NCBI GenBank assembly: GCA_051656905.1
Contig: JBOFJQ010000015.1
Span: 66,861-130,860, forward strand
DNA: 64,000 nt
Direction of reading: 5' to 3'
From: Fusobacteriaceae bacterium
GTDB taxonomy: Bacteria; Fusobacteriota; Fusobacteriia; Fusobacteriales; Fusobacteriaceae
The position numbers were made by a program, and so were the translations under genes. This document shows, piece by piece, positions 2,320 to 58,139 of this stretch; within the stretch, counting starts at the first letter, position 1, and every line of letters begins with the position of its first letter. Under the pieces are notes generated by a model that had not been told where the DNA came from, ran no database searches, and saw nothing but the letters and a program-made list of their open reading frames with translations.

Positions 2320-4668
2320 ATGTCAAAGCTTAATCAACAAAAAACACCTATTTTTTCAACGCTAAAAGATGTATACGTAAAAAGGGATATAACGCCTTTT
2401 CATGTGCCAGGGCACAAAAGGGGAGTTGGAGCTGATAAAGAGTTCCACGACTTCGTAGGAAATGGTATATTCTCAATGGATGTTACAATATTTAAAATGG
2501 TAGATGGACTTCACCAACCTAAAAGTTGTATAAAAGAAGCACAGGAACTTTTAGCAGATGCTTACGGAGTTAAGAAAAGTTTCTTTGCCGTAAACGGAAC
2601 ATCAGGGGCTATTCAAACTATGATAATGACTGTAGTTAAGTCAGGAGAGAAAATTTTAGTTCCAAGAAATGTACATAAGTCGGTATCAGCAGGAATTATT
2701 TTAAGTGGAGCGGAACCTGTTTATATGAATCCAGAGATTGATGAAACTCTTGGAATTGCACATGGAGTAAAACCACAAACTGTAGAAACAATGTTAAAAC
2801 AGCATCCTGATATAAAAGCAGTATTACTGATTAACCCAACATATTATGGAGTTGCAACTGATTTGAAGAAGATAGTTGATATTGTTCACTCTTACGATAT
2901 TCCTATAATTGTTGACGAAGCTCATGGACCACATTTATATTTCCATGATGACTTACCTCTATCGGCAGTTGAAGTAGGAGCAGATATGTGTGCTCAAAGT
3001 ACTCATAAAATAATAGGTGCTTTAACTCAAATGTCAGTATTACATGTTAATTCAGATAGAATAGATGTAAATAGAGTTCAACAAATTTTAAGTTTATTAC
3101 ACACAACATCTCCATCTTACCCTTTAATGGCTTCACTTGATTGCGCTAGAAGACAGATAGCAACAGAAGGAAGAGAGTTACTAGATGTAACTATAAAGCT
3201 AGCTAACCATGCAAGAACAGAGATAAACAGAATACCAGGAATGTATTCATTTGGAATTGAAATGTTAGGAAGAGATGGAGTTTATGCTTTTGATCCTACA
3301 AAATTAACTGTTTCTGCAAAAGAAATGGGAATTACAGGATTTGAATTAGAGACTTTATTAGTTGACGACTACAACATCCAAGTTGAACTTTCAGATTTCT
3401 ATAACATCTTAGGTTTAATAACAATTGGAGATACTCAAGAGAGTATTGATAAATTATTAGCAGCACTTACAGATATTAGTAAGAGATTCCATGGTGAAGG
3501 GAAAAAAATAGATAGAGAGTTATTAAGAATGCCAGCAATTCCTGAACTTGAATTAATACCAAGGGAAGCTTTCTACTCTGAAAAAAATAGAGTATTATTT
3601 GAAGAGAGTGAAGGAAAAATTTCTGGAGAGATGATTATGGCTTATCCACCAGGTATACCAATTATAGTTCCTGGAGAGAGAATTACTAGAGAGACTATTA
3701 ACTATATTCATGACTTAAAAGATGCTAAATTACATATTCAAGGAATGGAAGATCCAGAACTAGAGTTTATTAATGTAATTGAAGAAGAGGATGCAGTTTA
3801 TATCTATACAGAAAAAATGAAAAACATGATGATTGGAGTTCCACTTAACTTAGGAGCAAACAAAGCTGGTATCGAATTTGGACCAGATGTGTTACAAGAA
3901 AATTATCCTGATAATTTTGATGAAATGACTATTATTGAAGTTGAAAAGCAAAAAGAAAACTTCAATGACTGGAACTTAAAATATAAGAATACAATATTAC
4001 ATACATGTGAGAAAATAGCTTCTCAAGTTAACGAAGCTGTAAAAGATGGTTATAGACCAATAGTAATTGGAGGAGACCACTCAATAGCTCTTGGAACAAT
4101 TTCTGGAGTATCTTTAGAAAAAGAGATTGGAGTTATCTGGATTGACGCACATGGAGATATGAATACTGATGAGATTACAATGTCTGGAAATATTCATGGA
4201 ATGCCTCTTGCATTACTTCAAGGTTATGGAGATAGAGATTTAGTTAACTGTTTCTATGAAGGTGCAAAAATAGAGAGTAAAAATGTTGTTATTTTAGGAG
4301 CTAGAGATCTAGATCACAAAGAGAGAGAGTTTATTGATGAACTTGGAATAAAAGTAATATCTTATGATGAGGTTATCCATAAAGGATTAGACAATGTTCT
4401 AGAAGAGATTAGAGAGCATTTAAAAGTTGATAACTTACACATAAGTTTCGACGTGGATTCTGTAGATCCAGAGTTTGCACCAGGAGTTTCAACACCTGTA
4501 AGAAACGGATTTACACCTGATGAAATGTTCACAACTTTCAAGTATTTATTTAAAAACTACTTTATCACATCAGTTGATATAGTTGAGTTTAACCCTGTAT
4601 TTGATAAAAATGGAAAAACGGGAGAATTTGTAAACGAATTAACAAATTTTGTGTTAAATCCAAGTTAA
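2320..4668 (+). CDS. bifunctional fusion: Orn/Lys/Arg decarboxylase (AAT fold) N-terminal part plus arginase-family C-terminal part
   Basis: 782 aa. The N-terminal ~490 aa has HVPGHKRG and the PLP-lysine context QSTHKIIGALTQ. The C-terminal ~280 aa has the Mn motifs GGDHSIALGT, WIDAHGDMNT...SGNIHGMPLA and SFDVDSVDP, as in RocF-type arginases. Confidence 0.85.
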   Translation: MSKLNQQKTPIFSTLKDVYVKRDITPFHVPGHKRGVGADKEFHDFVGNGIFSMDVTIFKMVDGLHQPKSCIKEAQELLADAYGVKKSFFAVNGTSGAIQTMIMTVVKSGEKILVPRNVHKSVSAGIILSGAEPVYMNPEIDETLGIAHGVKPQTVETMLKQHPDIKAVLLINPTYYGVATDLKKIVDIVHSYDIPIIVDEAHGPHLYFHDDLPLSAVEVGADMCAQSTHKIIGALTQMSVLHVNSDRIDVNRVQQILSLLHTTSPSYPLMASLDCARRQIATEGRELLDVTIKLANHARTEINRIPGMYSFGIEMLGRDGVYAFDPTKLTVSAKEMGITGFELETLLVDDYNIQVELSDFYNILGLITIGDTQESIDKLLAALTDISKRFHGEGKKIDRELLRMPAIPELELIPREAFYSEKNRVLFEESEGKISGEMIMAYPPGIPIIVPGERITRETINYIHDLKDAKLHIQGMEDPELEFINVIEEEDAVYIYTEKMKNMMIGVPLNLGANKAGIEFGPDVLQENYPDNFDEMTIIEVEKQKENFNDWNLKYKNTILHTCEKIASQVNEAVKDGYRPIVIGGDHSIALGTISGVSLEKEIGVIWIDAHGDMNTDEITMSGNIHGMPLALLQGYGDRDLVNCFYEGAKIESKNVVILGARDLDHKEREFIDELGIKVISYDEVIHKGLDNVLEEIREHLKVDNLHISFDVDSVDPEFAPGVSTPVRNGFTPDEMFTTFKYLFKNYFITSVDIVEFNPVFDKNGKTGEFVNELTNFVLNPS

Positions 4669-7188: not shown

Positions 7189-9288
7189 ATGTTCAATGAG
7201 AGCAAATTATCAATGGATTTAGGTGGAAGAGAACTAATAGTAAAAACAGGAAAAATTGCTAGACAATCAAATGGTGCAGTAATGGCGCAATATGGTGATA
7301 CAGTAATTTTAACAACAGTAAATAGAGGGAAACAACCAAAAGAGGGAATAGATTTCTTTCCGTTAACAGTTGAGTATGTTGAGAAGTTTTATGCTGCTGG
7401 AAAATTCCCAGGTGGATTTAACAAAAGAGAATCAAGACCAGCAACAGATGCTATATTAACTTCAAGATTAATAGACAGACCAATAAGACCAATGTTCCCA
7501 GAAGGGTTTACATATGAAGTTCAAATAGTAAATACAATAATGTCTTTTGATGGAAAAAATATAGCTAACCATATAGCTATAACTTTATCATCACTAGCTT
7601 TAATGATTTCTGATTTACCATTTTTAGGACCAGTAGCAGGAGTAGTTGTAGGTTATAAAGATGGAGAGTTTATTTTAAACCCAACACCTGAGCAGTTAGA
7701 AACAAGTGAGTTAGAGCTTGTAGTTGCAGGTACTAAAGATGCAATAAACATGGTTGAAGCAGGGGCTTCTGAGCTTTCTGAAGAGATAATGTTAAAAGCT
7801 ATGATGTTTGCACACGATAACATTAAAAAATTATGTGCTTTCCAAGAAGAATTTGCAGCAGCAGTTGGAAAAGAGAAAATCACTTTTGATTCTCCTCAAC
7901 CATTAGAGCTTGTAAAAACTTTCATAGATGAAAAAGCAACAACTGAGTTAAAAGCAGCTATATTAACTGAAGGAAAACATGATAGAGATGACGCTATTGA
8001 TGCTTTAGAAGTTAGATTAATGGAAGAGTTCAAAGAGATTAATTTCCCAGGAGAAGAAACAGAATTCCCTAAGGATATTCAAAAAGAATTCAAAACTTAT
8101 TATCATGATTTAATGAAGAAATTAGTAAGAGATGCTATTTTATTCAATAAACACAGAGCAGATGGAAGAACTACTACACAAATCAGACCATTATTTGCTG
8201 AGGTTGGAGTTTTACCAGTTCCACACGGTTCTTCAATGTTTACAAGAGGAGAAACTCAAGCGATTGTTATAGCAACTCTTGGAACAAAATCTGATGAGCA
8301 ATTAGTAGATTCAGTTGAAAAAGATTATTTCAAAAAATTCTATTTACATTATAACTTCCCACCATATTCAGTTGGAGAAACAGGAAGAATGGGTGCACCA
8401 GGAAGAAGAGAATTAGGACACGGAGCTTTAGCAGAAAGAGCTTTAAAATATGTTTTACCATCAGAAGATGCATTCCCATACACAATCAGATTAGTATCTG
8501 AGATTACTGAGTCAAATGGTTCATCATCTCAAGCTTCAGTTTGTGGAGGATCTTTAGCTCTTATGAACGCAGGAGTACCTATTAGAGAGCACGTAGCAGG
8601 AATAGCTATGGGTCTTATTAAAGAGGGAGACGACTATGTTGTATTAACTGATATTCAAGGTTTAGAAGATCATTTAGGAGACATGGACTTTAAAGTAGCA
8701 GGAACAAAGAAAGGAATTACAGCTCTTCAAATGGATATGAAAATAACTGGAATTAACGAGAATGTATTAAAGCAAGCTTTATCACAAGCGTTAACAGCTA
8801 GATTAGAAATATTAGAAGTTATGAATGCAGCTATTCCAGCTCCAGCAGAAATGAAAGAGACTGTACCAAGAATTCACCAAATGACAATACCTAAAGATAA
8901 GATTGCTGTATTAATAGGACCAGGTGGAAAGAATATTAAAGGTATAATCGAAGCAACAGGAGCAACAGTTGATATAGATGATACAGGAAAAGTTTCTATA
9001 TTTGCAGTAGGATTAGAAGTTTTAGAGCAAACTATTAAATTAGTAAACGGATACGTTAAAGATGTAGAAGTTGGAGAAATATATAAAGGTAAAGTTGTAG
9101 GAGTAAAAGATTTCGGAGCATTCGTAGAAATTTTACCAGGAAAAGAAGGATTATTACATATATCTGAAATTTCAGTTGAAAGAGTTGCTAAAGTAGAAGA
9201 TGTAATAAAATTAGGAGATGTTTTTGACGTTAAAGTTAAATCAGTTGAGAACGGAAAAGTAAGTTTAACAAGAAAGAATATACAGTAA
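7189..9288 (+). CDS. pnp: polynucleotide phosphorylase
   Basis: 699 aa with two RNase PH domains plus KH and S1 domains. Collinear with PNPases. Confidence 0.97.
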
Positions 9289-10667: not shown

Positions 10668-11219
10668 ATGAATTTACCTAATAAGTTAACTTTTTCAAGA
10701 GTGTTATTAGCTATTCCTTTTATATTTTTCTTAGAAAGAGCTAACTCAGGTTCTGATATCTATCGTTATATAGCTTTTGCTCTTTTCGTATTAGCATCTT
10801 TAACAGATTGGTTAGATGGATATTTAGCTAGAAAATATAACTTGATAACAGATTTTGGAAAACTGATGGACCCTTTAGCAGATAAAATTTTAGTAATTTC
10901 AGCAATGGTAATATTTGTTTCTTTAGGGTGGTTACCGTCTTGGATGTCTATAGTTGTTATAGCTAGAGAATTTTTAATAAGTGGAATAAGAACTTTAGCA
11001 GCAGCACAAGGTGAAGTAATTCCAGCTGGAAACCTAGGAAAATATAAAACAACAACACAGATGATAGTTATAATAATAATGCTACTATTTGGACCAATAA
11101 AAAATCCTGAGTATGCAAACTTATACTATTATATGATGTTTATACCTGTTATTTTAACAATATGGTCTGGTTGGGATTATTCAGTTAAAGCCAAGCATTA
11201 TTTTATGAACCATATGTAA
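10668..11219 (+). CDS. pgsA: CDP-diacylglycerol--glycerol-3-phosphate 3-phosphatidyltransferase
   Basis: CDP-alcohol phosphatidyltransferase motif DWLDGYLARKYNLITDFGKLMDPLADK. Confidence 0.9.
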   Translation: MNLPNKLTFSRVLLAIPFIFFLERANSGSDIYRYIAFALFVLASLTDWLDGYLARKYNLITDFGKLMDPLADKILVISAMVIFVSLGWLPSWMSIVVIAREFLISGIRTLAAAQGEVIPAGNLGKYKTTTQMIVIIIMLLFGPIKNPEYANLYYYMMFIPVILTIWSGWDYSVKAKHYFMNHM

Positions 11220-11555: not shown

Positions 11556-12500
11556 ATGAACGATATAAAGGAAACAATTGACGACTATCATATACCGGTT
11601 CTTTATTATGAAACGTTAGATAATTTAGTAGTAAATCCAGATGGTGTATATGTTGATTGTACTCTCGGAGGAGGAGGACACTCTGAAGGGATATTAAAAA
11701 GACTATCTCCTAAAGGTGTTTTAATTTCAATAGATCAAGATCAGCAAGCGATTGATTATGCTAAAAAGAGATTAGAGGGATATCCAAATTGGAAATGTTT
11801 TAAAAACAACTTTGAAAACATAGAAACTGTTATATATATGGCAGGTTATGATAAAGTTGATGGAATCTTAATGGATATTGGAGTTTCTTCAACACAGCTT
11901 GACGATGCAGAGAGAGGATTTTCTTATAGATTTGACGCAAGATTAGATATGAGAATGAATACTTCAGCGAAGATTTCAGCTTATGAAGTGGTAAATACTT
12001 ACGAAGAGGGAGCTTTATCTAAAATATTCTTTGAATTTGGTGAAGAGAGACATGCAAGAAGAATAGCTAAATATATTTGTGATTCAAGAAAAGAAAAACC
12101 TATTGAAACAACAGGTGACTTAGTTGCAATTATAAAGAGAGCTTATCCAGAAAGAGCTGCAAAGCATCCTGCTAAGAAGACTTTCCAAGCTATAAGAATT
12201 GAGGTTAATAAAGAGCTAGAAGTGTTAGAAAATGCTGTAAACAAAGCTGTAGACTGCTTAAAAGTAGGTGGAAGATTAGGAATTATAACTTTCCACTCTT
12301 TAGAGGATAGAATGGTAAAAACAATGTTTAAGGATTTTGCTACTGACTGTATATGTCCACCAAGACTTCCAGTTTGTATTTGTAATAACAAAGCAAAAGT
12401 AAAATTAGTTACTAAAAAACCAATAATACCTTCAGAAGACGAGCTTGATCAAAATAAAAGATCTCGTTCATCTAAATTAAGAGTAATAGAGAGGATTTAA
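11556..12500 (+). CDS. rsmH: 16S rRNA (cytosine1402-N4)-methyltransferase
   Basis: 314 aa with HIPVL, DCTLGGGGHS, DIGVSS and FHSLEDR motifs. Confidence 0.95.
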   Translation: MNDIKETIDDYHIPVLYYETLDNLVVNPDGVYVDCTLGGGGHSEGILKRLSPKGVLISIDQDQQAIDYAKKRLEGYPNWKCFKNNFENIETVIYMAGYDKVDGILMDIGVSSTQLDDAERGFSYRFDARLDMRMNTSAKISAYEVVNTYEEGALSKIFFEFGEERHARRIAKYICDSRKEKPIETTGDLVAIIKRAYPERAAKHPAKKTFQAIRIEVNKELEVLENAVNKAVDCLKVGGRLGIITFHSLEDRMVKTMFKDFATDCICPPRLPVCICNNKAKVKLVTKKPIIPSEDELDQNKRSRSSKLRVIERI

Positions 12501-20324: not shown

Positions 20325-20485
20325 AAAATCCTCTTTATCAAATGGTACGATAAAGAGGATTTATTCTTCTGAATAAATACTTCTTATCTTCCAAGTTAAA
20401 ATACTTGCAGGAATTAGCACCGTGTATTGTACCGGTTGCTGAAACTTCATAGGGCCTGTCCCTCAGTTTCTCTTGATAAGGATTA
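20325..20485 (-). ncRNA. SAM-I (S-box) riboswitch with terminator, leader of metNIQ
   Basis: The reverse complement reads CTTATCAAGAGAAACTGAGGGACAGGCCCTATGAAGTTTCAGCAACCGGTACAATACACGGTGCTAATTCCTGCAAG...GGAAGATAAG, which contains the conserved S-box cores. A 13-bp hairpin AATCCTCTTTATC/GATAAAGAGGATT and a T-run follow. Confidence 0.88.
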
Positions 20486-33172: not shown

Positions 33173-33479
33173 TTAAGATATTCGGCAGAAATTCTATGTT
33201 GCTTTTTTTAGTGAAATAATATATAATCCAAAGAAGTAAAAAAATATGGTCAGTAGAGGTCGCAGATGACAAGAGTAGTCTAAAAATTAAAGAAATTTAA
33301 TTGAGATGAAAGGGGATTTTGCCGAAATATTAGAATTATTTAATATTGGGGGTATAGTTAATAGCTATACAACTGTCGTTATATTAATAACGTTGTGCTA
33401 TCTGATGTTTATAAAATAAAATAGAAATTAAAATTGATTGTGAATATTCGGTTTTAAAAGATATTGTTTTTTGTATGCA

Positions 33480-45900: not shown

Positions 45901-45986
45901 GCCTGGGTGACGAAATGGTAAACGTAGTTGACTCAAAATCAATCGGTGGTAACACCTTGGGGGTTCAAGTCCCCCCTCAGGCACCA
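45901..45986 (+). tRNA. tRNA-Leu (anticodon CAA), CCA encoded
   Basis: I folded the cloverleaf by hand: acceptor gcctggg/ctcaggc, anticodon loop cuCAAaa, long variable arm, T arm ggggg-ttcaagt-ccccc. Confidence 0.93.
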
Positions 45987-45988
45987 AC

Positions 45989-47224
45989 TTATTCATCTTT
46001 AGATTCTAAAGATGTTTTTTTATTTTCTGCTATTTTTTCTAGAATCTTCCCTGTTTTTAGTATATTTTTATTAGAGAGGTGTGTGTAAGTATCCATGGTA
46101 GTATTTATAGTAGAGTGTCCTAGCCACTGTTGAATTTCTTTCATGTCAAGTCCTGCATTGTGAAGCATAGTTGCACATGAGTGACGCAGATCATGGAATC
46201 TAATATCTTTAAAATTATGTTTTCTAATTATTGTTTTAAAGTGTTGTGTAATGTAATTGGGCTTTATAAGGTCACCCATTTCATTTACACATATATTATC
46301 TAAATATTTTTTATTATAAGAGTTTCCAAATTCTAAAATATATTTAGATTGTTTCTCTTTTATCTTTATCAGTAGTTCTTTTAGTTGTGGAATTAAATCT
46401 AATGTTCTATGACTTTTTTTATTTTTTGTTCTTTCTCTATTTTCATACATCTTCTTGTTCCCATCAGAAAACTCTACAATTGTATTTTCAATAACAATAC
46501 AATTATTTTCATAGTCAACACTACTCCATTTAAGCCCTAGTGCTTCACTTCTTCTCAATCCATAAAAAGCAGCGAGGTAAACAGGTAACTCTATATAAGT
46601 TCCTTTTACTACAAGTAATAGCTCATGTATCTCACTAGGAGTTAATGTTTTTGCTATATATTGCCTTTTCTTAGGCTTTTCGACTAAATCCGCTTGGTTA
46701 TTTAAAACCAAGCCTTGTTTTAAAGCCGTTTGTAGAGCCTTTCTAATATTTGCATGGTAATGTAAAACTGTATTTGCACTGATGCCTCTCTCATTTAAGT
46801 GGTAGTTGTAGAACTCTTGTAAGTGAGTAGCTTTCAATTCTTTTAATCCTAAGTTTAGATCTAAAAAGTATGGAATAACATTGTTCTCTATAATGTGTCT
46901 ATATCCAGTATAAGTATTTTTTTCTAAAGTTGATTTAACCGAATTAAGCCAAATTTTTAAGAAATCAGTGAAGAGGATAAAACCCTCTTCTTTTTCTGAA
47001 AGCTTCTTTGTCCATTCTAACCTAAAATCATAAAGCATTGAGTTAGCCTCTGCCAAGTTTTCTTTGCTCTTTGTTTTTGTTTTATCATCAACTAGTAATT
47101 TTGTAGATTTTGATTTTAGTACTTGTTTCTGAGTAATTGGATCATAGAAATTTATAACAGTATGATAAAATCCGTTCTTTTTTCTTAAGTATCCTGCAAT
47201 TAGTTTATCTTCATTTTTTTTCAT
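45989..47224 (-). CDS. int: tyrosine recombinase / phage integrase
   Basis: 411 aa with a SAM-like N-terminal core-binding domain, GLRRSE, HDLRHSCATML and a HxxxxxTxxxYTH C-terminus. Confidence 0.93.
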   Translation of the reverse strand: MKKNEDKLIAGYLRKKNGFYHTVINFYDPITQKQVLKSKSTKLLVDDKTKTKSKENLAEANSMLYDFRLEWTKKLSEKEEGFILFTDFLKIWLNSVKSTLEKNTYTGYRHIIENNVIPYFLDLNLGLKELKATHLQEFYNYHLNERGISANTVLHYHANIRKALQTALKQGLVLNNQADLVEKPKKRQYIAKTLTPSEIHELLLVVKGTYIELPVYLAAFYGLRRSEALGLKWSSVDYENNCIVIENTIVEFSDGNKKMYENRERTKNKKSHRTLDLIPQLKELLIKIKEKQSKYILEFGNSYNKKYLDNICVNEMGDLIKPNYITQHFKTIIRKHNFKDIRFHDLRHSCATMLHNAGLDMKEIQQWLGHSTINTTMDTYTHLSNKNILKTGKILEKIAENKKTSLESKDE

Positions 47225-47428: not shown

Positions 47429-48136
47429 TTAATTCTCCTTTTCAAATAAATTTAAATTATTTTCATTAATTATAAGTTCTTCTTTTTCTTTTATAAAAAG
47501 TTCAATCTCTTCCAGTTCTCTTTTTAAAGATTTGATATTACTTTTATATTGTGAAATATTATTTGAATTTTTGATTAATTTAATTTTATATTTTAAATCT
47601 TTAAATTCGTTTATGATTTCATCATTTTCAACATCTATTATTTCAACTTCTTCTACCTTAATATTATTCTCTATCAATCCAGTATCAAGTAACCAGTATT
47701 TGATTTCCTCTATTGATTTAAGTCCTAATTCAGCAACTTCAATTACTCTTTGAGGTTCTGACAACTTAGATGTCAGCATCTTTACAGCAGGTATACTTAA
47801 AGAACTAACCCAAAGGTGATGTTCTGGAACTTGAATAAAGAGTTCATATCTTTTTAATAGTTCAGAAACTTTGTCTTTATTGAGACCAATGTGCTGATAC
47901 CATTGCATGAATGTCCCATCTTTCTTTAAGATAAGAGAAACATCATAAAGCTCTTTACAGATTTCAAAAATATTTTGAGAATAAGCTTTGAAGGTTCTGA
48001 AAATAATCTCTTCTTTTTTTATAACTTCTTCTATATCTCTTTTTTCAATTTCGCAACTTCCGAAATCGAAGGTAGATTGATACTGAGGTTTAACTTGACC
48101 TTTTAGTCTGTCTAAAGCAGTCATTTTTTTATTCAT
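47429..48136 (-). CDS. hypothetical protein, possible ParB-like partition adaptor
   Basis: The call rests on position only: it overlaps the parA stop. The C-terminus is a coiled coil. I recognise no motif. Confidence 0.4.
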   Translation of the reverse strand: MNKKMTALDRLKGQVKPQYQSTFDFGSCEIEKRDIEEVIKKEEIIFRTFKAYSQNIFEICKELYDVSLILKKDGTFMQWYQHIGLNKDKVSELLKRYELFIQVPEHHLWVSSLSIPAVKMLTSKLSEPQRVIEVAELGLKSIEEIKYWLLDTGLIENNIKVEEVEIIDVENDEIINEFKDLKYKIKLIKNSNNISQYKSNIKSLKRELEEIELFIKEKEELIINENNLNLFEKEN

Positions 48137-48902
48137 TGCAAATCACCTCAATAATTTTTAAAAATATTTCTCTAATCTCTTCTGTTTTAACAGACTTGCT
48201 TTCCCAAACTGATTTACCTTTATCTATTAGCTTTCCTATTTCTCCTGATTGGCTGATAGGCATTGTAAGTAAAATTCCTGTTCCATCTAAGATATCAACT
48301 AACGAATCATAAATTTCTTTTTCTTTAGCTGTTCTAGTAAACCTATTTGGAATAATAGCTTTCACCTTTTTTTTATCAACTTGATTAAGTAAATTTACAA
48401 TTGATGCAGTTGTAACGTTATCTAAAAATGTTGGAATAACTATTTCATCTGCTAACTCTAAAAAGTCTTTATCCAAAGAAAGTGTTGGAGTGGAATCAAT
48501 TATAATATACTCAAATCTTTGTTTTAAAGTTTCTATAAAGTTTATTAACTTTCCTCTTGATGATGTTTTAATATAGTCTGCCATCAAAGGAATGAAATAT
48601 ACATTTTCTCTAATTGAAATTATTTCCCCATCTTTTCCATTAATCCACTCTTCTAATCCACTGTTAAATTCAACATTTTCTTTTCCTGCATAGTGTAAGA
48701 TATTATTTTGAGAATCGGTTGTAAGTATTAGAATTTTTTTGCCTGTTTTTAATTGTAAAGCATGTGCAATTTGGAGAGTAATCCATGATTTTCCAACTCC
48801 GCCTTTATTATTTTTAATTAAAATTATTTTTGCTAGTTCGTTACTTAAAGGCTTAAATTCTCTACAATCAAAGATTGTTTCTACTAGTTCTTTGTATTTC
48901 AT
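48129..48902 (-). CDS. parA: ParA/Soj family partition ATPase
   Basis: Deviant Walker A NNKGGVGKSW and Walker B IIIDSTP. Confidence 0.85.
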   Translation of the reverse strand: MKYKELVETIFDCREFKPLSNELAKIILIKNNKGGVGKSWITLQIAHALQLKTGKKILILTTDSQNNILHYAGKENVEFNSGLEEWINGKDGEIISIRENVYFIPLMADYIKTSSRGKLINFIETLKQRFEYIIIDSTPTLSLDKDFLELADEIVIPTFLDNVTTASIVNLLNQVDKKKVKAIIPNRFTRTAKEKEIYDSLVDILDGTGILLTMPISQSGEIGKLIDKGKSVWESKSVKTEEIREIFLKIIEVICNE

Positions 48903-51802: not shown

Positions 51803-51871
51803 TTTTTCTAGTATCTCCTTATTAAAATTTAATTTACCTGTGATAATTAAATAAAAAAACGTAGTTTTATA

Positions 51872-52060
51872 TTATTCTTCTAAAAGAATACCCTCCTTTA
51901 ATTTTAGAATTTTTTCTATTTTTAAAATTACATCTTTATTATTTCTATCAATATGGTGATACATAAGCTGTCTTGAAGACATTCCCAAATCTTCAACTAA
52001 TTTTTTTATGCTAATATCTTTTTTAATACATTCAATTTTTATACGCTGTTTTAATGTCAT
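51872..52060 (-). CDS. Cro-like small HTH regulator
   Basis: 62 aa from ATG 52060 after GGAGA. The HTH is ISIKKLVEDLGMSSRQLMYH. It is divergent from the cI-like gene. Confidence 0.65.
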   Translation of the reverse strand: MTLKQRIKIECIKKDISIKKLVEDLGMSSRQLMYHHIDRNNKDVILKIEKILKLKEGILLEE

Positions 52061-52100
52061 ATATTCTCCTTTAATTGTAGTTTCAATTATAAGTGATACC

Positions 52101-52174
52101 ACTTACTAAAAGAAGTATAACAATTTAAGTTATCTTTGTAAATAGTTTTTTTTGAAAAACTTCTCTAAGTAAGT
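52101..52174. promoter_or_regulatory. pair of inverted 16-bp operator-like sites in the switch region
   Basis: acttactaaaagaagt (52101-52116) matches the reverse complement of acttctctaagtaagt (52159-52174) at 14/16 positions. Each site overlaps the -35 region of a divergent promoter (the -10 TATAAT complement at 52086-52091; TGtTATTAT at 52191-52199). Confidence 0.4.
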
Positions 52175-52233: not shown

Positions 52234-52743
52234 ATGAGCATTAATGAAACAAGTGATATTCCTGAAATAGATAGAAAAAAATTAGGAAATTATATAGATG
52301 AAATAAGAAAAGAAATTTCTTTTGGATTTAATCAGTTATCATTAAAAAGTGGTTTAAATGCGAGAACTTTAAATGAAATATTAAATGGAAATAGTAAAAG
52401 AACAAACCCATATCACTTACAAAAATTAGGTTTTGCTTTAAGAATAGATTATAAAGAGCTTTATAAAATAGTAGGTTATTTATCAGAAGATGATTTTAAA
52501 GAGGCTGATTTGTTAAAAAAAGAAGTTTTAGAGTTAAAGACTAAATTAACAGAATGTGAAAATAAAGTAAACGTAATTAATCATGGAGAAATGTCGGGAA
52601 ACCAAATTTTGGGTAATGTTAATGATTCTGAAATAAAAGTTATCAAAGGGGAAAAAGTGAGCAATATAGATACCTCTGGACTGACAGAAGAGCAATTAAA
52701 GAATTTGGAACAATATATTAAGTTCTTAAGAACACAGGGGTAA
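52234..52743 (+). CDS. cI-like XRE-family repressor (no S24 peptidase domain)
   Basis: HTH FNQLSLKSGLNARTLNEILNG, a coiled-coil C-terminal half, and a GGGAGGAG RBS. Confidence 0.72.
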   Translation: MSINETSDIPEIDRKKLGNYIDEIRKEISFGFNQLSLKSGLNARTLNEILNGNSKRTNPYHLQKLGFALRIDYKELYKIVGYLSEDDFKEADLLKKEVLELKTKLTECENKVNVINHGEMSGNQILGNVNDSEIKVIKGEKVSNIDTSGLTEEQLKNLEQYIKFLRTQG

Positions 52744-52768
52744 AATTAGGGGGAGAATTTAGTTAGTT

Positions 52769-52936
52769 ATGTCTAAAGAAGAATGGAGTAAAGTATTATT
52801 TTTAGAAGAGGAAATAAAAAGATTAAATGAAATAATTATGGGGAAGAATATTATAAATAATGGAGATAATACTGGGGTTCAGATATTTGGGGATATCGTG
52901 AATTCCAGTATTATTATCTATAATAGGGAACGTTAG
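52769..52936 (+). CDS. 55-aa protein paralogous to the repressor C-terminal tail
   Basis: My own translation gives MSKEEWSKVLFLEEEIKRLNEIIMGKNIINNGDNTGVQIFGDIVNSSIIIYNRER. The RBS is AGGGGGAG. Confidence 0.4.
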   Translation: MSKEEWSKVLFLEEEIKRLNEIIMGKNIINNGDNTGVQIFGDIVNSSIIIYNRER

Positions 52937-52970
52937 TTAAAAAAATTTAATATACAGGGGGAGTTAAAAA

Positions 52971-53942
52971 ATGAATGAGTGGGAAAAAAGCAATGAGGGA
53001 ATAACAAGTAAAAAATGGTTTGTAGTAATAATGCTTCTTTTTTTTACACCAGTAGGAATATATTTTATGTGGCGTAATAACAGTTTTTCTAAAGTAGCTA
53101 GAATTATAATTACAGCAATTATGGGATTATTTTTTGTTGGTATTATGGCAGTTAGTTCAGGTACTTTAAATGACGAAAAAGGACAAAAAGTAATTAAATC
53201 TAATAAAATTGAAGAGGTTAAAGAAGAAAAAATTGATAAAGTTCAAGATGAAAAAGATAAGATTGAACAAGTAAAAAAAGAAATAAAAAAAGTAACACTT
53301 GATTATGAAGCAAGACATTTAGATTTATGGATGGAAATGGCAAATAATATGAAAAAAAGTGATTTACAAAAGACATATGAATATGCGAGTAAGTCACTAG
53401 AACGTGTAAAAAAAATCTATTTAGATACTCTTATGATTAATTTTGAAAAAACAGGGAATGTTGAGTTTGATAATAGAGTAGAAGCATATAAAGATAAATT
53501 AAATACTGCTTATTACTTAAAGAAAGATTCTTTAGAAAAACTTCTTTTAGCACTTGAAGATACAAGTTCTATTAAGAGAGCTAATGAAGTTAAAGAAGCA
53601 ATGGAGAAAGCTAGTAATTATTGGACAACTTTTCAATTTAGTACAGCGATAATGACTATTACAGATGATGATATTAAGTCTTATAATGAACAGAAAGAAA
53701 AAGAAACAGCTATTAATGAAGAAATAAAAAAAGAAGTTGCGAAAGAGAAAGTGGTAAAAGAAGTAGTTAAACCTAAAAAACTGTCATATAGCGAAGATGA
53801 TGTTTATACTCATTTAATTTGGAAAGGTTATAGCGGTGAAAGATCTTTAGAGAGATTTAAAGAGGCAAATGGAATGCCTGCAAATAAGGTTATAAATGAA
53901 AAAGTATTAAAAGCTTTAGGAATGGAAATAAAGTATAAATAA
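52971..53942 (+). CDS. membrane-anchored coiled-coil protein with PG-binding-like C-terminus
   Basis: Two N-terminal TM helices, a K/E-rich helical body, and the tail VYTHLIWKGYSGERSLERFKEANGMPANKVINEKVLKALGM, which resembles PG_binding_1. Confidence 0.6.
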   Translation: MNEWEKSNEGITSKKWFVVIMLLFFTPVGIYFMWRNNSFSKVARIIITAIMGLFFVGIMAVSSGTLNDEKGQKVIKSNKIEEVKEEKIDKVQDEKDKIEQVKKEIKKVTLDYEARHLDLWMEMANNMKKSDLQKTYEYASKSLERVKKIYLDTLMINFEKTGNVEFDNRVEAYKDKLNTAYYLKKDSLEKLLLALEDTSSIKRANEVKEAMEKASNYWTTFQFSTAIMTITDDDIKSYNEQKEKETAINEEIKKEVAKEKVVKEVVKPKKLSYSEDDVYTHLIWKGYSGERSLERFKEANGMPANKVINEKVLKALGMEIKYK

Positions 53943-53980
53943 GAAGTTAATAAAAAATTAATATACAGGGGGAAAAAATA

Positions 53981-54685
53981 ATGGGATTTATCGGTTTTGC
54001 AATAGTAATAATTTTTATAGGGGCAATTTGTATGCTCAGAATGATTTCTAAAATGAAAAAAAGAATAGAAGGGGAGTTATTGAGCTTTGCAGATAAAGGG
54101 TTTGGTAAAATATTCGTAGGGGATGATGGGAAATCAGGTATTGGAGCTAATCTTGATGATTATAAGCTAGTTTTAGTTGAACTTAAAGGGAAGGAAATCT
54201 TTTCTAATATTATAGATTATAAAGATATAGTTTCTGTAGAGTTAGTACAAAACGGAACAATTGTAAGCAAGACATCAAAAAGTTCTCAACTAGGAAAAGC
54301 AGCTGTAGGAGGTGTTTTATTTGGTGGAGCTGGAGCAGTTATCGGTGCTTTAAGTGGAAATAAAAAAAATGTTGAAAATGTTAGTAAAGTACAAGCTAAA
54401 TTAACTATTCAAGATTTGAAAATGCCAATTTTTAATGTTACATTTATGGATGCTAATTTTAAGAAGGATGGTTTTTTTCATAAAGCTATGATTCAAAAAG
54501 CAGAAGAATGGATTGGAATAATAAGTGCAATGATAAAAAAGGCAGAGCAAGACATAATTTATCAATCTCAGGGATCTAATACAGCATCTAATTATGTTGA
54601 TGAAATAGAAAGATTGCATTCTTTAAAAGAAAAAGGAATAATAACTGAAGAAGAGTTTAATAAGAAAAAAGCAGAATTATTATAA
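53981..54685 (+). CDS. membrane protein with glycine zipper and C-terminal SHOCT domain
   Basis: N-terminal TM, glycine zipper AAVGGVLFGGAGAVIGALSG, and SHOCT-like tail IERLHSLKEKGIITEEEFNKKKAELL. Confidence 0.6.
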   Translation: MGFIGFAIVIIFIGAICMLRMISKMKKRIEGELLSFADKGFGKIFVGDDGKSGIGANLDDYKLVLVELKGKEIFSNIIDYKDIVSVELVQNGTIVSKTSKSSQLGKAAVGGVLFGGAGAVIGALSGNKKNVENVSKVQAKLTIQDLKMPIFNVTFMDANFKKDGFFHKAMIQKAEEWIGIISAMIKKAEQDIIYQSQGSNTASNYVDEIERLHSLKEKGIITEEEFNKKKAELL

Positions 54686-54729
54686 AAATAAATAATATTA
54701 TTAATAAAGAAATTATTTTAGGGGGAAAG

Positions 54730-55614
54730 ATGGGGATAAATAATCAATTTGAGGTTTTTTGTAATAATATAAAAATTCAAAAAAGTAATGTTGATAAAAT
54801 AGCAAATCGTTATAAAACAATAACAAAATTATTGAATAAAGAATACTATTCTACAGAGTCTGATACTGCACATAGCCTATATGTTGGATCGTATGGGAGA
54901 GACACTGATATTCATACAAGTGATATTGATATTTTATTTTGGCTTCCTTGGGAGAAATATACGCAGTATAAGAATTATTTATATAATGGACAATCTGCAT
55001 TAATTCAAGATGTAAAAAATGTAATAAAAAAAACATACCCTTCATCAGCTATACGTGGGGATGGACAAGTTATTATTATTGATTTTTATGATGGAATGAA
55101 ATTTGAAATTGTTCCTTGTTTTGAACTTAGTGATAAGTCATTTCTTTACCCTGATACAAATGAAGGAGGTAGCTGGAAGTATACTTATCCAAGAAAAGAA
55201 ATTGAAGAAATTAGAAATGAAAACTTCTATAAATGTAACAAAAATTTAAAAAGGCTATGTAGAATGGCTAGAGCTTGGAAAGAAAAGAATTCTGTTAATA
55301 TTTCGGGATATTTAATAGATACACTAGCGTATAAATTTTTAAAAGGATGGTCATATAAGAATTATTCTTATATGTTTTATGATTGGATGATTCGTGATTT
55401 TTTTTCATATTTAAAGGAGCAAAATATATATCAACAATATTGGGTAGTTCCAGGAAGTAATAAGTATGTTTACCGTTATGGACAGTCATTTGAATATAAA
55501 GCATTACTAGCATTTAATTTAGCTGTAGAAGCAATAGAATATAATACGAATAATTGTCCTTATACTGCTACAGGAAAATGGAAAGAAATTTTTGGTGCAA
55601 AATTTCCGTATTAA
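54730..55614 (+). CDS. SMODS-type nucleotidyltransferase (CD-NTase-like)
   Basis: Pol-beta NTase signature GSYGRDTDIHTSDIDILF, third acidic strand KFEIVPCF, and GGSWKYTYP and LKRLCRMARAWK segments as in SMODS proteins. Confidence 0.75.
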   Translation: MGINNQFEVFCNNIKIQKSNVDKIANRYKTITKLLNKEYYSTESDTAHSLYVGSYGRDTDIHTSDIDILFWLPWEKYTQYKNYLYNGQSALIQDVKNVIKKTYPSSAIRGDGQVIIIDFYDGMKFEIVPCFELSDKSFLYPDTNEGGSWKYTYPRKEIEEIRNENFYKCNKNLKRLCRMARAWKEKNSVNISGYLIDTLAYKFLKGWSYKNYSYMFYDWMIRDFFSYLKEQNIYQQYWVVPGSNKYVYRYGQSFEYKALLAFNLAVEAIEYNTNNCPYTATGKWKEIFGAKFPY

Positions 55615-55627
55615 GGGAGGTAAAAAA

Positions 55628-56269
55628 TTGACAAAGTCAGATTTTCTTAAATTAATAGCACAGAAAGCTTATGATGTATTATATGGTGCTAAATTAAATT
55701 TTTCAACATATGAAATAGTAGTAAAAGTTCCTGGGTTTTTAAATGTTATTTCACTAAGTGTCGGAATCTTTTCATTAGTTATAGACTATTTTTCTAACAA
55801 AATACTTTCAGCTATTGTTTTGATATTAGCAATCATTTCTTTATATATTTCAAAATATGAAGAAGAAATTAATTCTTATCAAGAAACAGGGGAAAAATTA
55901 ACTATTATTCAGAATAATTTAAAAAAGTTATATAGTGAAGTTAAATCTAAAGCTGATAATGAAAGATTTAAAGATTCTGAAGAAATGAAAGAATATAATA
56001 AACTAGACTCTGAATTTTTACTAATAAAGCAAAAAAAGCAAATAGTATTTAGTGGTTGGAGAGCTCATGTTATGATTTTTGGACAGCATCAAATTGACTG
56101 GATTGATGAACAGTTAAAATTTAAATTTTGGAAAGATAAGATACCCGCAACTTTTAAATTATTTATGTGGATGTCTATAGTAGTAATTATAGTAATAATT
56201 ACTACTATAATTTTTTCTGATTCTAAAAGTTCAGAGCAATGTTTAATGTTGTTTATAAATAATTTATAA
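55628..56269 (+). CDS. SLATT-like transmembrane effector
   Basis: TTG 55628 lies 7 nt after GGAGG. The protein has an N-terminal YGAKLNFSTYEI motif, two closely spaced TM helices, a coiled coil and a third C-terminal TM. Confidence 0.6.
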   Translation: MTKSDFLKLIAQKAYDVLYGAKLNFSTYEIVVKVPGFLNVISLSVGIFSLVIDYFSNKILSAIVLILAIISLYISKYEEEINSYQETGEKLTIIQNNLKKLYSEVKSKADNERFKDSEEMKEYNKLDSEFLLIKQKKQIVFSGWRAHVMIFGQHQIDWIDEQLKFKFWKDKIPATFKLFMWMSIVVIIVIITTIIFSDSKSSEQCLMLFINNL

Positions 56270-56306
56270 AGTAGATAATAGAAATATAGAGTCTTTGGAG
56301 GAATTT

Positions 56307-57377
56307 GTGTTTGATAATATAATAGATAAGATAAAAAAAGTTGGCGGAGAAGAAAAATATTGGCTTTTTAGAGCTGGAACAAAAGCAAAATATTTTGACA
56401 ATTTTTTTTATAGTAGAAAAATAGGATTAGCTTGGGATAAAATAGATGATATATCACAAACTTCGAGTCTTTTAACTCTTACAAATGAAGTTAAAAGGTT
56501 ATATCCAGAAGAAAAAAGGCCAGGGAATATATATAATAAAATTTATTCTTTTATTCACGAAATGAAAAATGGAGATTTTATTGTAATGCCTGATACAGAA
56601 AAGAAAAGAATAGCTATAGGAAGACTAATAGATGATAATGTTGAAATAAAAAAAATAGAAGAACAATTATCTCTTATGCCTATTAAAAGTCAGGAGAATT
56701 ATGATGAAGAGGAAAAAACAGATCCTGGTGTTATAAATAAATATAGGAACATAGAGTGGATTAAAGTAATGATAAAAGAAGAACTAACAGCAGAATTAGA
56801 ATTATTTTTATTTGCACCTCATAGTATATCTGAATTATCTAAAAGTGCTCAATATGAAATAAACAAATTAATATATGACTGTTTTATAAATCAAGATAAT
56901 ATATACTTGAAATATAAAGTTGATACAAGAACAGATATATTAGCGGATGATATATTGATGTTTTATAAATTGATTGACTATAGCGAGAAATTATCTAATA
57001 TATTAGAAGAAGAACCTAGAAAGATAAAAACAAAAATAAATGTAGCGTCACCAGGAGATATTGTTGCAATTGGTGGAGTATCTATTGGTTTGATATTAGC
57101 TTTAGGATATGTATTCAATGGCGGAAAAATTTCAATAAAAATTGGAGAAAAATTTAATTTTAATGCAGAAGGAGGAACACCTCTACAAGAATTTTTTAGT
57201 AATAGGCATAAAAATAAAATGGAAAAAATGAAATTCCAAGCAAGATTAGAAGAGTTGGAAGAGTTAGAAAGAAAATTTAAGAATGAAATAACTCATGAAG
57301 ATATAAAAAAAATGGAAAAAAGCTTAGAATTAAAAACACCTAAAATAATAGAAGAACAAAAAGAAAAGGAAGATTAA
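56307..57377 (+). CDS. hypothetical 356-aa protein: soluble N-domain, one TM near residue 260, charged coiled-coil tail
   Basis: GTG 56307 lies 4 nt after GGAGG (the ORF track starts at TTG 56295). I recognise no family. Confidence 0.55.
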   Translation: MFDNIIDKIKKVGGEEKYWLFRAGTKAKYFDNFFYSRKIGLAWDKIDDISQTSSLLTLTNEVKRLYPEEKRPGNIYNKIYSFIHEMKNGDFIVMPDTEKKRIAIGRLIDDNVEIKKIEEQLSLMPIKSQENYDEEEKTDPGVINKYRNIEWIKVMIKEELTAELELFLFAPHSISELSKSAQYEINKLIYDCFINQDNIYLKYKVDTRTDILADDILMFYKLIDYSEKLSNILEEEPRKIKTKINVASPGDIVAIGGVSIGLILALGYVFNGGKISIKIGEKFNFNAEGGTPLQEFFSNRHKNKMEKMKFQARLEELEELERKFKNEITHEDIKKMEKSLELKTPKIIEEQKEKED

Positions 57378-57580
57378 ACTCTTCCTATTTTTATTTCAAG
57401 ATTATTTATTTTATTATCATTAATTCTTATGAAATTAAAAATCACTATAAGAGAAGATAAACCCTTTATAACATCTTGCCAAATAACAGATATGTTAAGA
57501 TTATTAAAAGGAATATAATATATTAAAGAAAAGCAAAGAAAAACAAAACTAAATATAGAAAAATATATGGTAATTTTCAT
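57374..57580 (-). CDS. 68-aa two-TM protein, convergent
   Basis: AGGAGG lies 9 nt upstream. MKITIYFSIFSFVFLCFSLIYYI is followed by a second TM. The stop overlaps the 56307-57377 stop by 4 nt. Confidence 0.45.
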   Translation of the reverse strand: MKITIYFSIFSFVFLCFSLIYYIPFNNLNISVIWQDVIKGLSSLIVIFNFIRINDNKINNLEIKIGRV

Positions 57581-57759
57581 TAAGCATTTCCTCCTTTTTT
57601 TATTATATTAATGACAAATTATAGCTTTATATCTTGATTAAGTCAATTATAAAAAAAGAATGTCAAGATATTTTTGTAAGTAATAAAAAAAATATTTGAT
57701 GTTTTATATACTTATGTTATACAATATGTTTGATATGAAAATTTGGGGGGTAAAATTAA

Positions 57760-57915
57760 ATGCAAACATTTCCAAAAGAAATAGAAAATATTTTAAATGA
57801 CATAGGGAACTCATTAGTTAGCGAAAAAAAAGTTTCAATCAAAATTGAAAAAGAATTAAATGGAAATTTTTTTGTAACAATAGCACCAACAAAAATGGTT
57901 AGTTTAAACAAATAA
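57760..57915 (+). CDS. hypothetical 51-aa protein
   Basis: My own translation gives MQTFPKEIENILNDIGNSLVSEKKVSIKIEKELNGNFFVTIAPTKMVSLNK. The RBS is GGGGGG. Confidence 0.3.
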   Translation: MQTFPKEIENILNDIGNSLVSEKKVSIKIEKELNGNFFVTIAPTKMVSLNK

Positions 57916-58094
57916 TTAAAATTAATAAAAAATAATGTTTGATTTTTTTAAAATAAAATGTTTATATATATACAGGAATAAAGAAAAAAGAAGTTAGAAT
58001 AAATTGAGTAGTACCAAATGGACACCATTTATTCAGAATGATTTATTTTTTCTAAATTGAATAGAACTTTGGAATAAGAGGATGTAGCAAATGT

Positions 58095-58139
58095 CACCCT
58101 TATCTAGTCATAAAAGATTAGATAAGGGTGTTTTTTTTT
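58095..58139 (+). terminator. strong rho-independent terminator immediately upstream of the rightward late-side genes
   Basis: 12-bp perfect stem cacccttatcta / tagataagggtg with a 12-nt loop and T9. Confidence 0.85.

Follow-up and report, generated by a model that had tools for sequence, protein, structure and literature searches.

A probable defence slot behind the repressor of a Fusobacteriaceae prophage carries a type I CBASS pair and a DUF8426 gene with a convergent small-peptide gene

We analyzed a 64,000-nt stretch of DNA from a Fusobacteriaceae bacterium (GenBank assembly GCA_051656905.1, contig JBOFJQ010000015.1, positions 66,861 to 130,860 of the forward strand), hereafter the window, with a focus on a prophage block that starts at the repressor candidate (52234) and ends with a convergent 68-aa gene (57580). 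The block is probably a variable accessory slot of Fusobacteriaceae temperate phages, which runs in the direction of the repressor gene and collects independent systems. Its kind is already known, from prophage defence hotspots and repressor-adjacent defence genes, and the block is a new example in a little-studied phage lineage. The newest element, and the one genuinely new lead, is the pair of a DUF8426 gene (g7) and a convergent small-peptide gene, which was previously undescribed. Positions below are those of the window, related loci carry L numbers, and the genes and signals of the block are as follows.

51872-52102, minus strand: cro-like small helix-turn-helix (HTH) gene, 76 aa; weak matches to phrog_8 (E = 2.7e-4) and HTH_26
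52101-52174: divergent control region; 23-nt inverted repeat with arms at 52101-52123 and 52152-52174
52234-52743, plus strand: repressor candidate, 169 aa; N-terminal HTH, coiled-coil/beta C-terminal half
52769-52936, plus strand: g2, 55 aa; paralogue of repressor residues 83-141 (pairwise BLASTP E = 1e-5)
52971-53942, plus strand: g3, 323 aa; two transmembrane (TM) helices at residues 16-34 and 45-63
53962-57671: cargo segment, 3.7 kb; g4, the CBASS pair, g7 and the 68-aa gene with its promoter; absent from L036 and L037
53981-54685, plus strand: g4, 234 aa; N-terminal TM helix, central glycine-zipper segment, C-terminal SHOCT
54730-55614, plus strand: g5, SMODS CD-NTase, 294 aa; SMODS E = 2.8e-46 (Pfam)
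55628-56269, plus strand: g6, 2TM effector SLATT_6, 213 aa; TTG start, 13 nt past the g5 stop
56307-57377, plus strand: g7, 356 aa; GTG start; DUF8426/PDC-S02-like
57367-57386, both strands: bidirectional terminator-like hairpin, 7 bp; -10.4 kcal/mol, z = -2.8; A-tract and U-tract flanks
57374-57580, minus strand: 68-aa two-TM peptide gene, convergent with g7, 4-nt overlap; GGAGG ribosome-binding site
57618-57646, minus strand: promoter-like site of the 68-aa gene, TTGACT-17-TATAAT, 11/12, near-consensus
57760-57915, plus strand: conserved 51-aa open reading frame (ORF), right border of the variable slot; 52-55% identity in L033 and L035; present in L036 and L037

Results

The slot has conserved flanks and differing contents in related prophages

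We compared the block with related loci, which were found as contigs with g7 and g3 homologues, while L040 was recovered via a 364-aa late-region protein. L033, L035, L036, L037 and L038 proved to have a common backbone, which includes a ParA-like gene, a 150-aa protein and the 51-aa ORF, and the 364-aa protein was matched in L033, L036 and L037. Each relative carried a different set of genes between its repressor and the 51-aa ORF, as listed here for the slot.

L033: PD-Lambda-1 (E = 4e-137), an NsnA-like gene (E = 3e-64), a HEPN protein, DUF8426
L034: type III restriction-modification (R-M), DUF8426
L035: AbiP2 reverse transcriptase (E = 9e-184), Stk2 kinase (E = 2e-51), DUF8426
L036: long g3, two small genes
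L037: g2, long g3, a bPH protein, three small membrane proteins
L040: a TIR-like protein, a Lamassu-like set with LmuB (E = 8e-63)

Among L033-L038 and L040, conserved flanks thus enclose differing cargo, much of which consists of recognised defence systems; the exceptions to the shared-backbone evidence are L040 and L034, a truncated contig that shares only a cI fragment and DUF8426. Since recognised defence systems occupy the equivalent slot of relatives, this sequence comparison lends good support to the reading of the block as a defence or exclusion island, in line with the initial annotation, which had placed these genes in a prophage slot for lysogen-expressed genes and had taken them for a candidate island of this kind. 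L036 also encodes, at 12176-12409 on the plus strand, a 77-aa protein of KTQEN(L/S) heptad-like tandem repeats beside a 180-aa multi-TM protein, and neither of them matches a known family.

We then located the blastn homology breakpoints to the closest relatives, which fell at 51858/52877, 53961 and 57672, with DNA homology resuming at 57684 in L036 and at 57672 in L037. Four DNA segments were thus delimited: the immunity cassette, a conserved g3 block, the 3.7-kb cargo and a conserved late-control region. L036 and L037 carry g3 without g4, CBASS or g7. At the sequence level, the block is therefore a mosaic of at least four independent modules, namely the immunity cassette, g3, g4 with CBASS in the cargo, and g7 with the 68-aa gene. 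The initial annotation had left a choice between one larger and several small systems and had asked whether the genes co-occur in related prophages; the single system was rejected in favour of modules that move independently, and the slot is shared while the six genes do not travel together.

Defence hotspots have been described in P2-like phages and P4-like satellites by Rousset et al. 2022 (PMC9122126), and the slot resembles those in its fixed position between conserved phage genes and in the differing defence systems of related elements. It differs from them in belonging to another phage lineage, in its flanks, which are the repressor and g3 on one side and the 51-aa ORF and late region on the other, and in the recurrence of DUF8426 at the distal end of the slot. 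Phages of the Fusobacteriaceae, like their defence biology, have barely been explored, and a bounded hotspot can be mined for further systems in the phylum.

Layout and transcription signals

The block comprises seven co-directional plus-strand genes (52234-57377), which diverge from the cro-like gene, are separated by gaps of 25, 34, 38, 44, 13 and 37 nt, and are each preceded by a strong GGAGG/GGGGG ribosome-binding site. A consensus scan of 52234-57366 found no terminator-like site on the plus strand. The hairpin at 57367-57386 is weak and lies where the stop codons of g7 and of the 68-aa gene overlap. The short gaps and the lack of terminators in the scanned interval suggest that transcripts from the repressor promoter may read through the block in lysogens. 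By analogy, the slot between the immunity switch and the 51-aa ORF would thus be transcribed in the lysogen from the repressor promoter through the cargo. TM-like segments were detected in g3, g4, g6, g7 and the 68-aa ORF.

These results largely agree with the initial annotation, which had listed six genes behind the repressor in the same orientation with gaps of about 12-45 nt (13-44 nt were found, with ribosome-binding sites on all), several membrane proteins (here g3, g4, g6 and g7) and a strong hairpin at 58095 (58095-58130, -23.4 kcal/mol). Its statement that no intrinsic terminator precedes the convergent ORF stands for 52234-57366, while the weak hairpin at 57367-57386 had been overlooked. 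It had also treated the 68-aa ORF as the outer limit of the block and the 55-aa gene as cargo; as described below, the former is part of the g7 module and the latter belongs to the immunity cassette.

A 16-nt sequence, TTAATATACAGGGGGA, occurs in identical form before both g3 (52947-52962) and g4 (53958-53973), where 0.07 occurrences are expected by chance, and it is likewise repeated in L038 (9013-9028 and 10029-10044). The second copy coincides with the left cargo junction and may therefore mark a boundary of recombination, besides providing a ribosome-binding region.

In lambda, rexAB lies behind the repressor gene and is expressed in lysogens. The present block shares this arrangement, with accessory genes directly behind the repressor candidate on the same strand and no terminator in between. 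BstA is likewise a defence gene downstream of a prophage repressor, with which it presumably shares the promoter (PMC8585504), and the tie of the g7 family to the repressor locus across hosts is a further likeness to it. The block differs from both precedents in its several stacked systems, in its hosts, which are Fusobacteria and Firmicutes instead of Gram-negative enterics, and in its proteins: no Rex match was obtained in PADLOC and no KilA-N or BstA-like match in Pfam, and PHROGs and NCBIfam likewise gave no homology to RexA, RexB or BstA.

The immunity cassette

The cro-like protein shares 44% identity with its L033 equivalent, and its gene heads the leftward early/replication operon. Between it and the repressor gene, the control region contains the inverted repeat (ACTTACTAAAAGAAGT... 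/ ...ACTTCTCTAAGTAAGT) and a leftward promoter-like site, TTTACA-17-TATACT, with TG upstream; the arms of the repeat are candidate operators and may have a regulatory role. The repressor candidate matched phrog_3949 ('transcriptional repressor', E = 7.5e-4), with HTH_26 under the Pfam cut-off. It shares 49% identity with the L033 protein at the equivalent position, and its place corresponds to that of the HTH + Peptidase_S24 cI proteins of L035, L036 and L038.

For g2, no family library reached a curated score cut-off. L037, with the same repressor type, was the only relative with a g2 homologue, and the S24-type loci L036 and L038 had none; in addition, a DNA homology break (52877) lies within g2. 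Since g2 tracks the repressor type and resembles the C-terminal half of the repressor, we assign it to the immunity cassette and not to the cargo. It appears to be a headless repressor paralogue, which may serve as a partner of the repressor or as a modulator of its oligomerisation. Indeed, the whole segment 51858-52877, with the cro-like gene, the repressor and most of g2, is swapped in L036 and L038.

A type I CBASS pair

The cyclic oligonucleotide-based anti-phage signalling system (CBASS) is represented by g5 and g6. Besides the Pfam SMODS match, g5 matched the PADLOC Cyclase model PDLC00786 over its full length (E = 2.2e-126), while its score against NCBIfam CBASS_cyclase_b (108 bits) was under the equivalog cut-off of 200. 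In an alignment to the nearest solved cyclase, PDB 6P8U, which is a distant match (E = 1.4e-7), the GS...DID motif was kept. The adjacent g6 was recognised as SLATT_6 by Pfam (E = 9.9e-56), as NF033630 by NCBIfam (208 bits against a cut-off of 100) and as 2TM Effector by PADLOC (E = 1.8e-66). No protein encoded in 52234-57580 matched the type II proteins Cap2/Cap3 or the type III proteins HORMA/TRIP13 in Pfam or PADLOC. With a SMODS enzyme that retains the motif, an adjacent recognised effector and no accessory genes, g5 and g6 are thus, by PADLOC, a complete canonical two-gene type I CBASS. By analogy with known CBASS, the SMODS cyclase would make a cyclic oligonucleotide upon infection, and this would activate the SLATT_6 2-TM effector to permeabilise the membrane, so that the infection is aborted.

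Type I CBASS with a 2TM (SLATT) effector is reportedly a recognised class in the classification said to go back to Burroughs in 2015 and Millman in 2020. The present pair shares its two-gene order, in which the SLATT 2-TM effector gene comes after that of the SMODS CD-NTase, and has full-length PADLOC matches; it differs in its location in the repressor-side slot of a Fusobacteriaceae prophage, in the distance of its cyclase from the nearest solved one and in a Glu at the third catalytic acidic position of that alignment. A lactococcal plasmid provides another example of this type (PMC11381338). Only two records of the phage collection carry a relative of the g5 cyclase, and an IMG/VR pattern scan found none. 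The locus is a naturally occurring case of a prophage that stacks other modules onto a type I CBASS.

The membrane proteins g3 and g4

After its TM helices, g3 has a long helical ectodomain followed by a conserved 55-aa C-terminal motif. Its homologues (83-95% identity) were found in Fusobacteriaceae only, and g3 stands directly behind the repressor also in L036, L037 and L038, as the first post-repressor gene kept in close relatives. Two forms exist, a short one of 323-324 aa, to which the window copy belongs, and a long one of 481-483 aa. The TAA stop of the short form aligns with a CAA of the long forms (L036, about 10970-11000; L037, about 8455-8485) at the cargo junction, and homology to long g3 runs about 19 nt past the short-form stop (window 53940-53961), indicating that the cargo insertion removed a C-terminal domain of about 125 aa from g3. 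Short g3 has stayed intact in two prophages despite a 17% g3 difference, and L038 has the identical short g3/g4 junction as the window, yet an S24-type cI.

In the family libraries, g3 reached no curated score cut-off, and no phage record matched it. Profile searches of g3, g4 and g7 against PDB sequences and Pfam scans of isolated segments also gave nothing. A peptidoglycan-binding domain had been suspected in the C-terminal motif of g3, and the isolated-segment scans gave no match to one. A holin was rejected as well, as Holin_SPP1 over the TM region scored 15.2 bits (E = 0.024) against a cut-off of 27. Because of its topology and its fixed place behind the repressor, we tentatively read g3 as a lineage-conserved, envelope-exposed 2-TM protein, whose most likely role would be superinfection exclusion.

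The adjacent g4 matched SHOCT (E = 2.2e-9) and phrog_888 (E = 3.5e-35), its homologues carry PF27000 and SHOCT, and its family alignment contains invariant glycines. No PADLOC model matched it. Relatives of g4 in IMG/VR contigs stand by themselves, at an integrase or at the end of a prophage, and this solitary occurrence indicates that g4 is a self-contained, stand-alone prophage moron family. As a TM/SHOCT membrane moron, g4 might, speculatively, act at the envelope as an exclusion protein.

The DUF8426 protein g7

The g7 protein consists of a soluble N-terminal part of about 245 aa, an SPG motif, a hydrophobic helix (residues 252-270) and a coiled-coil tail. It matched PADLOC PDC-S02 (E = 2.8e-17), chiefly over residues 18-115 and, in a second model, over 122-210, and its full length matched phrog_10226 (E = 5e-40). 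The DUF8426 label comes from its homologues, which share 46-98% identity with it and carry precomputed PF28530. An exhaustive HMMER search, with clusters of about 50% identity, returned 3019 cluster representatives at E <= 1e-3, of which 323 remained at E <= 1e-30; almost all were 320-410 aa long and matched from end to end. The PDC-S02 models were matched by all 51 sampled family members, g7 included, and the hydrophobic helix after the SPG motif was kept in 45 of the 51. The family thus agrees with PDC-S02 in matches and sizes; it differs in that PADLOC models a single gene, whereas a gene for a convergent 2-TM peptide accompanies it here, and in that the g7 matches cover mainly residues 18-115.

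An AlphaFold (AF2) model from 51 sequences had a pLDDT of 83.7 and a pTM of 0.73, compared with a pLDDT of 69.9 for an earlier model from 10 sequences. In Foldseek structure searches, neither model matched a PDB entry at E <= 0.001, and BFVD gave one uncharacterised homologue only. Since the model is confident and found no PDB relative, the predicted DUF8426 fold would be new. An N-terminal PUA/EVE-like or restriction-endonuclease-like domain had also been considered, from the sequence pattern, a 'restriction endonuclease domain' annotation in phage SF39 and a PvuII match (E = 0.086), and both were dropped when Foldseek gave no support. An IMG/VR pattern scan found no g7 relatives.

In cultured phages, the g7 homologue lies in a repressor-led operon just before the integrase, as in Fusobacterium phiPaco, S. 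agalactiae phiGBSVK-D, S. pneumoniae IPP63/SF39 and Latilactobacillus TMW 1.46 P2, and in metagenomic prophages it directly follows an S24 cI or an ImmR/ImmA pair. In several phages, it starts 2-30 nt past the repressor or ImmA gene or overlaps its end. Elsewhere, g7 homologues accompany type III R-M, AbiP2, PD-Lambda-1 or an AAA ATPase pair, or stand right after the repressor. Upstream of the DUF8426 gene in L057 (73-2260, plus strand), we observed an AAA_15/AAA_21 ATPase and a 280-aa protein, possibly PARIS- or Septu-like; in L047, a non-prophage island, a divergent WYL-domain regulator (2595-3587, minus strand) lies upstream of the DUF8426 gene, with a helicase nearby.

A convergent small-peptide gene accompanies DUF8426

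The 68-aa peptide matched no family in Pfam, PADLOC, PHROGs or NCBIfam. A 55-80-aa 2-TM ORF convergent with the DUF8426 gene at its 3' end was, however, present in 10 of 11 independent contexts, with spacings from a 67-nt overlap to a 31-nt separation, whereas the same criteria applied to other genes of at least 150 aa were satisfied by 2 of 258 in the window and related loci and by 1 of 29 in phage records (about 1%). At an earlier count of 7 in 9 contexts, the p value of a Fisher test was about 1e-11. Most copies have ribosome-binding sites, promoter-like sites precede the equivalent ORFs in phiPaco (12/12) and L035 (10/12), and the copies of L035, L053 and L057 are conserved at the protein level. 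Several copies, including those of L033 and L053, had been overlooked by gene callers. The pair of DUF8426 and peptide occurs in Fusobacteriaceae, Streptococcus and Latilactobacillus phages, nearly always in the repressor operon, and copies of the peptide gene were located as follows.

Window: 57374-57646, minus strand, including the promoter
L035: 11057-11282
L042: 6941-7167
L043: 5090-5329
L044: 5004-5192
L045: 4540-4773
L046: 4010-4222
L047: 4889-5131
L053: 1855-2022
L057: 3594-3761

The layout recalls type I toxin-antitoxin (TA) loci with a convergent 3' overlap, such as TxpA/RatA and BsrG/SR4 of B. subtilis prophages and Fst/par. In layout only, the pair is alike in having, within a prophage, a small hydrophobic membrane peptide with its own strong promoter and a 3' overlap with the opposite transcript, and, in the window, a hairpin common to both convergent genes. 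It differs in that the opposing transcript encodes a 356-aa protein and not only a small RNA, and in that the peptides, with 55-80 aa and two TM segments, are longer than most type I toxins.

The membrane-associated DUF8426 protein and the convergent, independently promoted peptide would together form a separate abortive-infection or exclusion module. Speculatively, DUF8426 could be a cytoplasmic sensor that is tethered by its hydrophobic helix and works with, or is opposed by, the peptide. A more specific proposal, which we offer tentatively and hold to be less likely true than false, is a two-gene module anchored at repressor loci of Fusobacteria and Firmicutes, in which operon transcription or DUF8426 itself restrains a membrane-active peptide, and infection or the loss of lysogenic transcription releases it and aborts the infection; the same proposal takes the DUF8426 fold to be new and g3 and g4 to be perhaps new exclusion proteins. 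DUF8426, a family of about 3000 clusters (50% identity) with no known fold relative, now appears as part of a gene pair with a fixed address by prophage repressors. The pair is the correct unit to clone, which may explain the missing protection of the single gene in a published test described below.

Discussion

The family assignments refine the initial annotation. It had named only the SMODS/SLATT pair, which Pfam and PADLOC identified as a complete type I CBASS; names are now available also for g4 (SHOCT/phrog_888) and g7 (PDC-S02/phrog_10226/DUF8426). Its suggestion of undescribed systems needs correcting for g7, whose large family (3019 representatives) was already flagged as a defence candidate. 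It had seen no virion, replication or lysis function among these genes, and indeed no protein reached a curated cut-off for one, the sole hint being the sub-threshold Holin_SPP1 match of g3.

Several points weigh against the reading of the block as a variable slot that collects defence systems. The comparison comprises about nine related loci, mostly metagenomic; a genome-contig scan by means of the 364-aa flank protein yielded a single locus, which had too little upstream DNA, and a metagenome scan gave two loci, one of them useful, and with so few loci from the wider scans the hotspot sample stays small. The region has 40 promoter-like matches compared with 48.2 expected from shuffled sequence, which is background level, so that co-transcription with the repressor is deduced from layout and spacing, and each cargo cassette could carry a promoter of its own. 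The repressor assignment of the 169-aa protein comes from weak HTH similarity and position, g3 is under every curated family cut-off, g4 has no PADLOC match, and the third catalytic acidic position of g5 in the 6P8U alignment is Glu126, not Asp. Furthermore, a single tested PDC-S02 representative (n=1) was not among the systems that protected E. coli B against T4, T5 and T7 (bioRxiv 10.1101/2024.09.26.614923); in the literature searched, we found no mention of DUF8426 and no published protective phenotype for PDC-S02.

We therefore weighed four other explanations. That the block is one integrated system, a six-gene CBASS-like machine to which g3, g4 and g7 contribute as accessory sensors or effectors, would suit the tight spacing, the common direction and the presence of four membrane proteins, as the CBASS effector is likewise a membrane protein. 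However, the partners do not co-travel, as g3 occurs without CBASS, g4 occurs alone, and g7 is found with type III R-M, AbiP2, PD-Lambda-1 or an AAA ATPase pair, or directly behind the repressor; moreover, PADLOC sees g5 and g6 as a complete type I pair, and the cyclase itself had no relative in the IMG/VR pattern scan and two in the phage collection. We thus regard a single system as highly improbable. Only slightly less improbable is that the 68-aa ORF arose by chance in AT-rich intergenic DNA, leaving g7 as a single-gene unit as in PADLOC. T-rich sequence readily yields hydrophobic ORFs, with many antisense examples, the peptide has no family match, and gene callers missed the L033 and L053 copies; nevertheless, the equivalent ORF recurs in 10 of 11 contexts but in only 2 of 258 and 1 of 29 other genes, most copies have ribosome-binding sites, three loci have 10-12/12 promoter-like sites, and the protein is conserved among the L035, L053 and L057 copies.

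The other two explanations, both unlikely, carry more weight. According to the first of them, g3, g4, and g7 with the 68-aa gene are not anti-phage but serve induction or lysis timing, envelope remodelling, lysogenic conversion or type I TA-like addiction. Indeed, g3 is lineage-conserved and not variable, the g7 homologues are almost always at a repressor or ImmR/ImmA locus, to which regulation or maintenance is equally suited, the peptide gene has the layout of type I TA loci such as TxpA/RatA, BsrG/SR4 and Fst, and the tested PDC-S02 representative was not protective. Against this, g7 homologues stand at the distal end of bona fide defence gene runs and also in a non-prophage island, PADLOC lists the family as a defence candidate, and g4-type genes occur at prophage ends, as is typical for exclusion genes; none of these counterpoints is direct evidence. 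Somewhat less doubtful is the absence of a repressor-driven operon, in which case each cargo cassette would have its own promoter and the linkage would be positional. Mobile defence cassettes often bring their own promoters, the cargo (53962-57671) came by recombination, and internal promoter-like sites with 9-10/12 matches lie in the block (e.g. 53658-53687, 55820-55849 and 56395-56422). However, such sites are no commoner than in shuffled sequence, the 13-44-nt gaps are filled by ribosome-binding sites and leave little promoter room, no plus-strand terminator-like site separates the genes, and in several phages the g7 homologue directly follows or overlaps the repressor or ImmA gene. The variable slot behind the repressor, with independent systems collected in it, thus remains our preferred reading.

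Prophage setting

Finally, the surroundings of the block in the window (G+C of about 28%) include the following features.

45901-45986, plus strand: tRNA-Leu(CAA), adjoining the integrase gene; probable left attachment site
45989-47224, minus strand: tyrosine integrase gene; the prophage starts at the tRNA-Leu beside it
47429-48902, minus strand: ParA-like ATPase gene and neighbouring 235-aa gene
58095-58130, plus strand: strong intrinsic terminator, -23.4 kcal/mol, z = -7.2; precedes the late/packaging genes

After the integrase, the leftward genes encode the ParA-like, a DnaD-like replication and the 76-aa cro-like HTH proteins, and past the 58095-58130 terminator, the rightward genes are Ant-like, HNH, TerS and TerL; the right end of the prophage is outside the window. 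A megablast of window 45-64 kb against phage records found no close relatives, and an Rfam scan of 52-58 kb found no RNA family. The ParA-like ATPase and the neighbouring 235-aa gene are kept in all relatives, within a prophage that has an integrase, which may point to a stage of plasmid-like maintenance or to a function related to partition. Between the cargo and the late genes, 57696-58130 contains a promoter-like site (57696-57725), the 51-aa ORF and about 180 nt of non-coding DNA before the terminator, an arrangement reminiscent of a control region for late-gene antitermination. Outside the prophage, the host DNA of the window contains a SAM riboswitch (20381-20482, minus strand, 90 bits) and a lysine riboswitch (33246-33408, plus strand, 79.7 bits).

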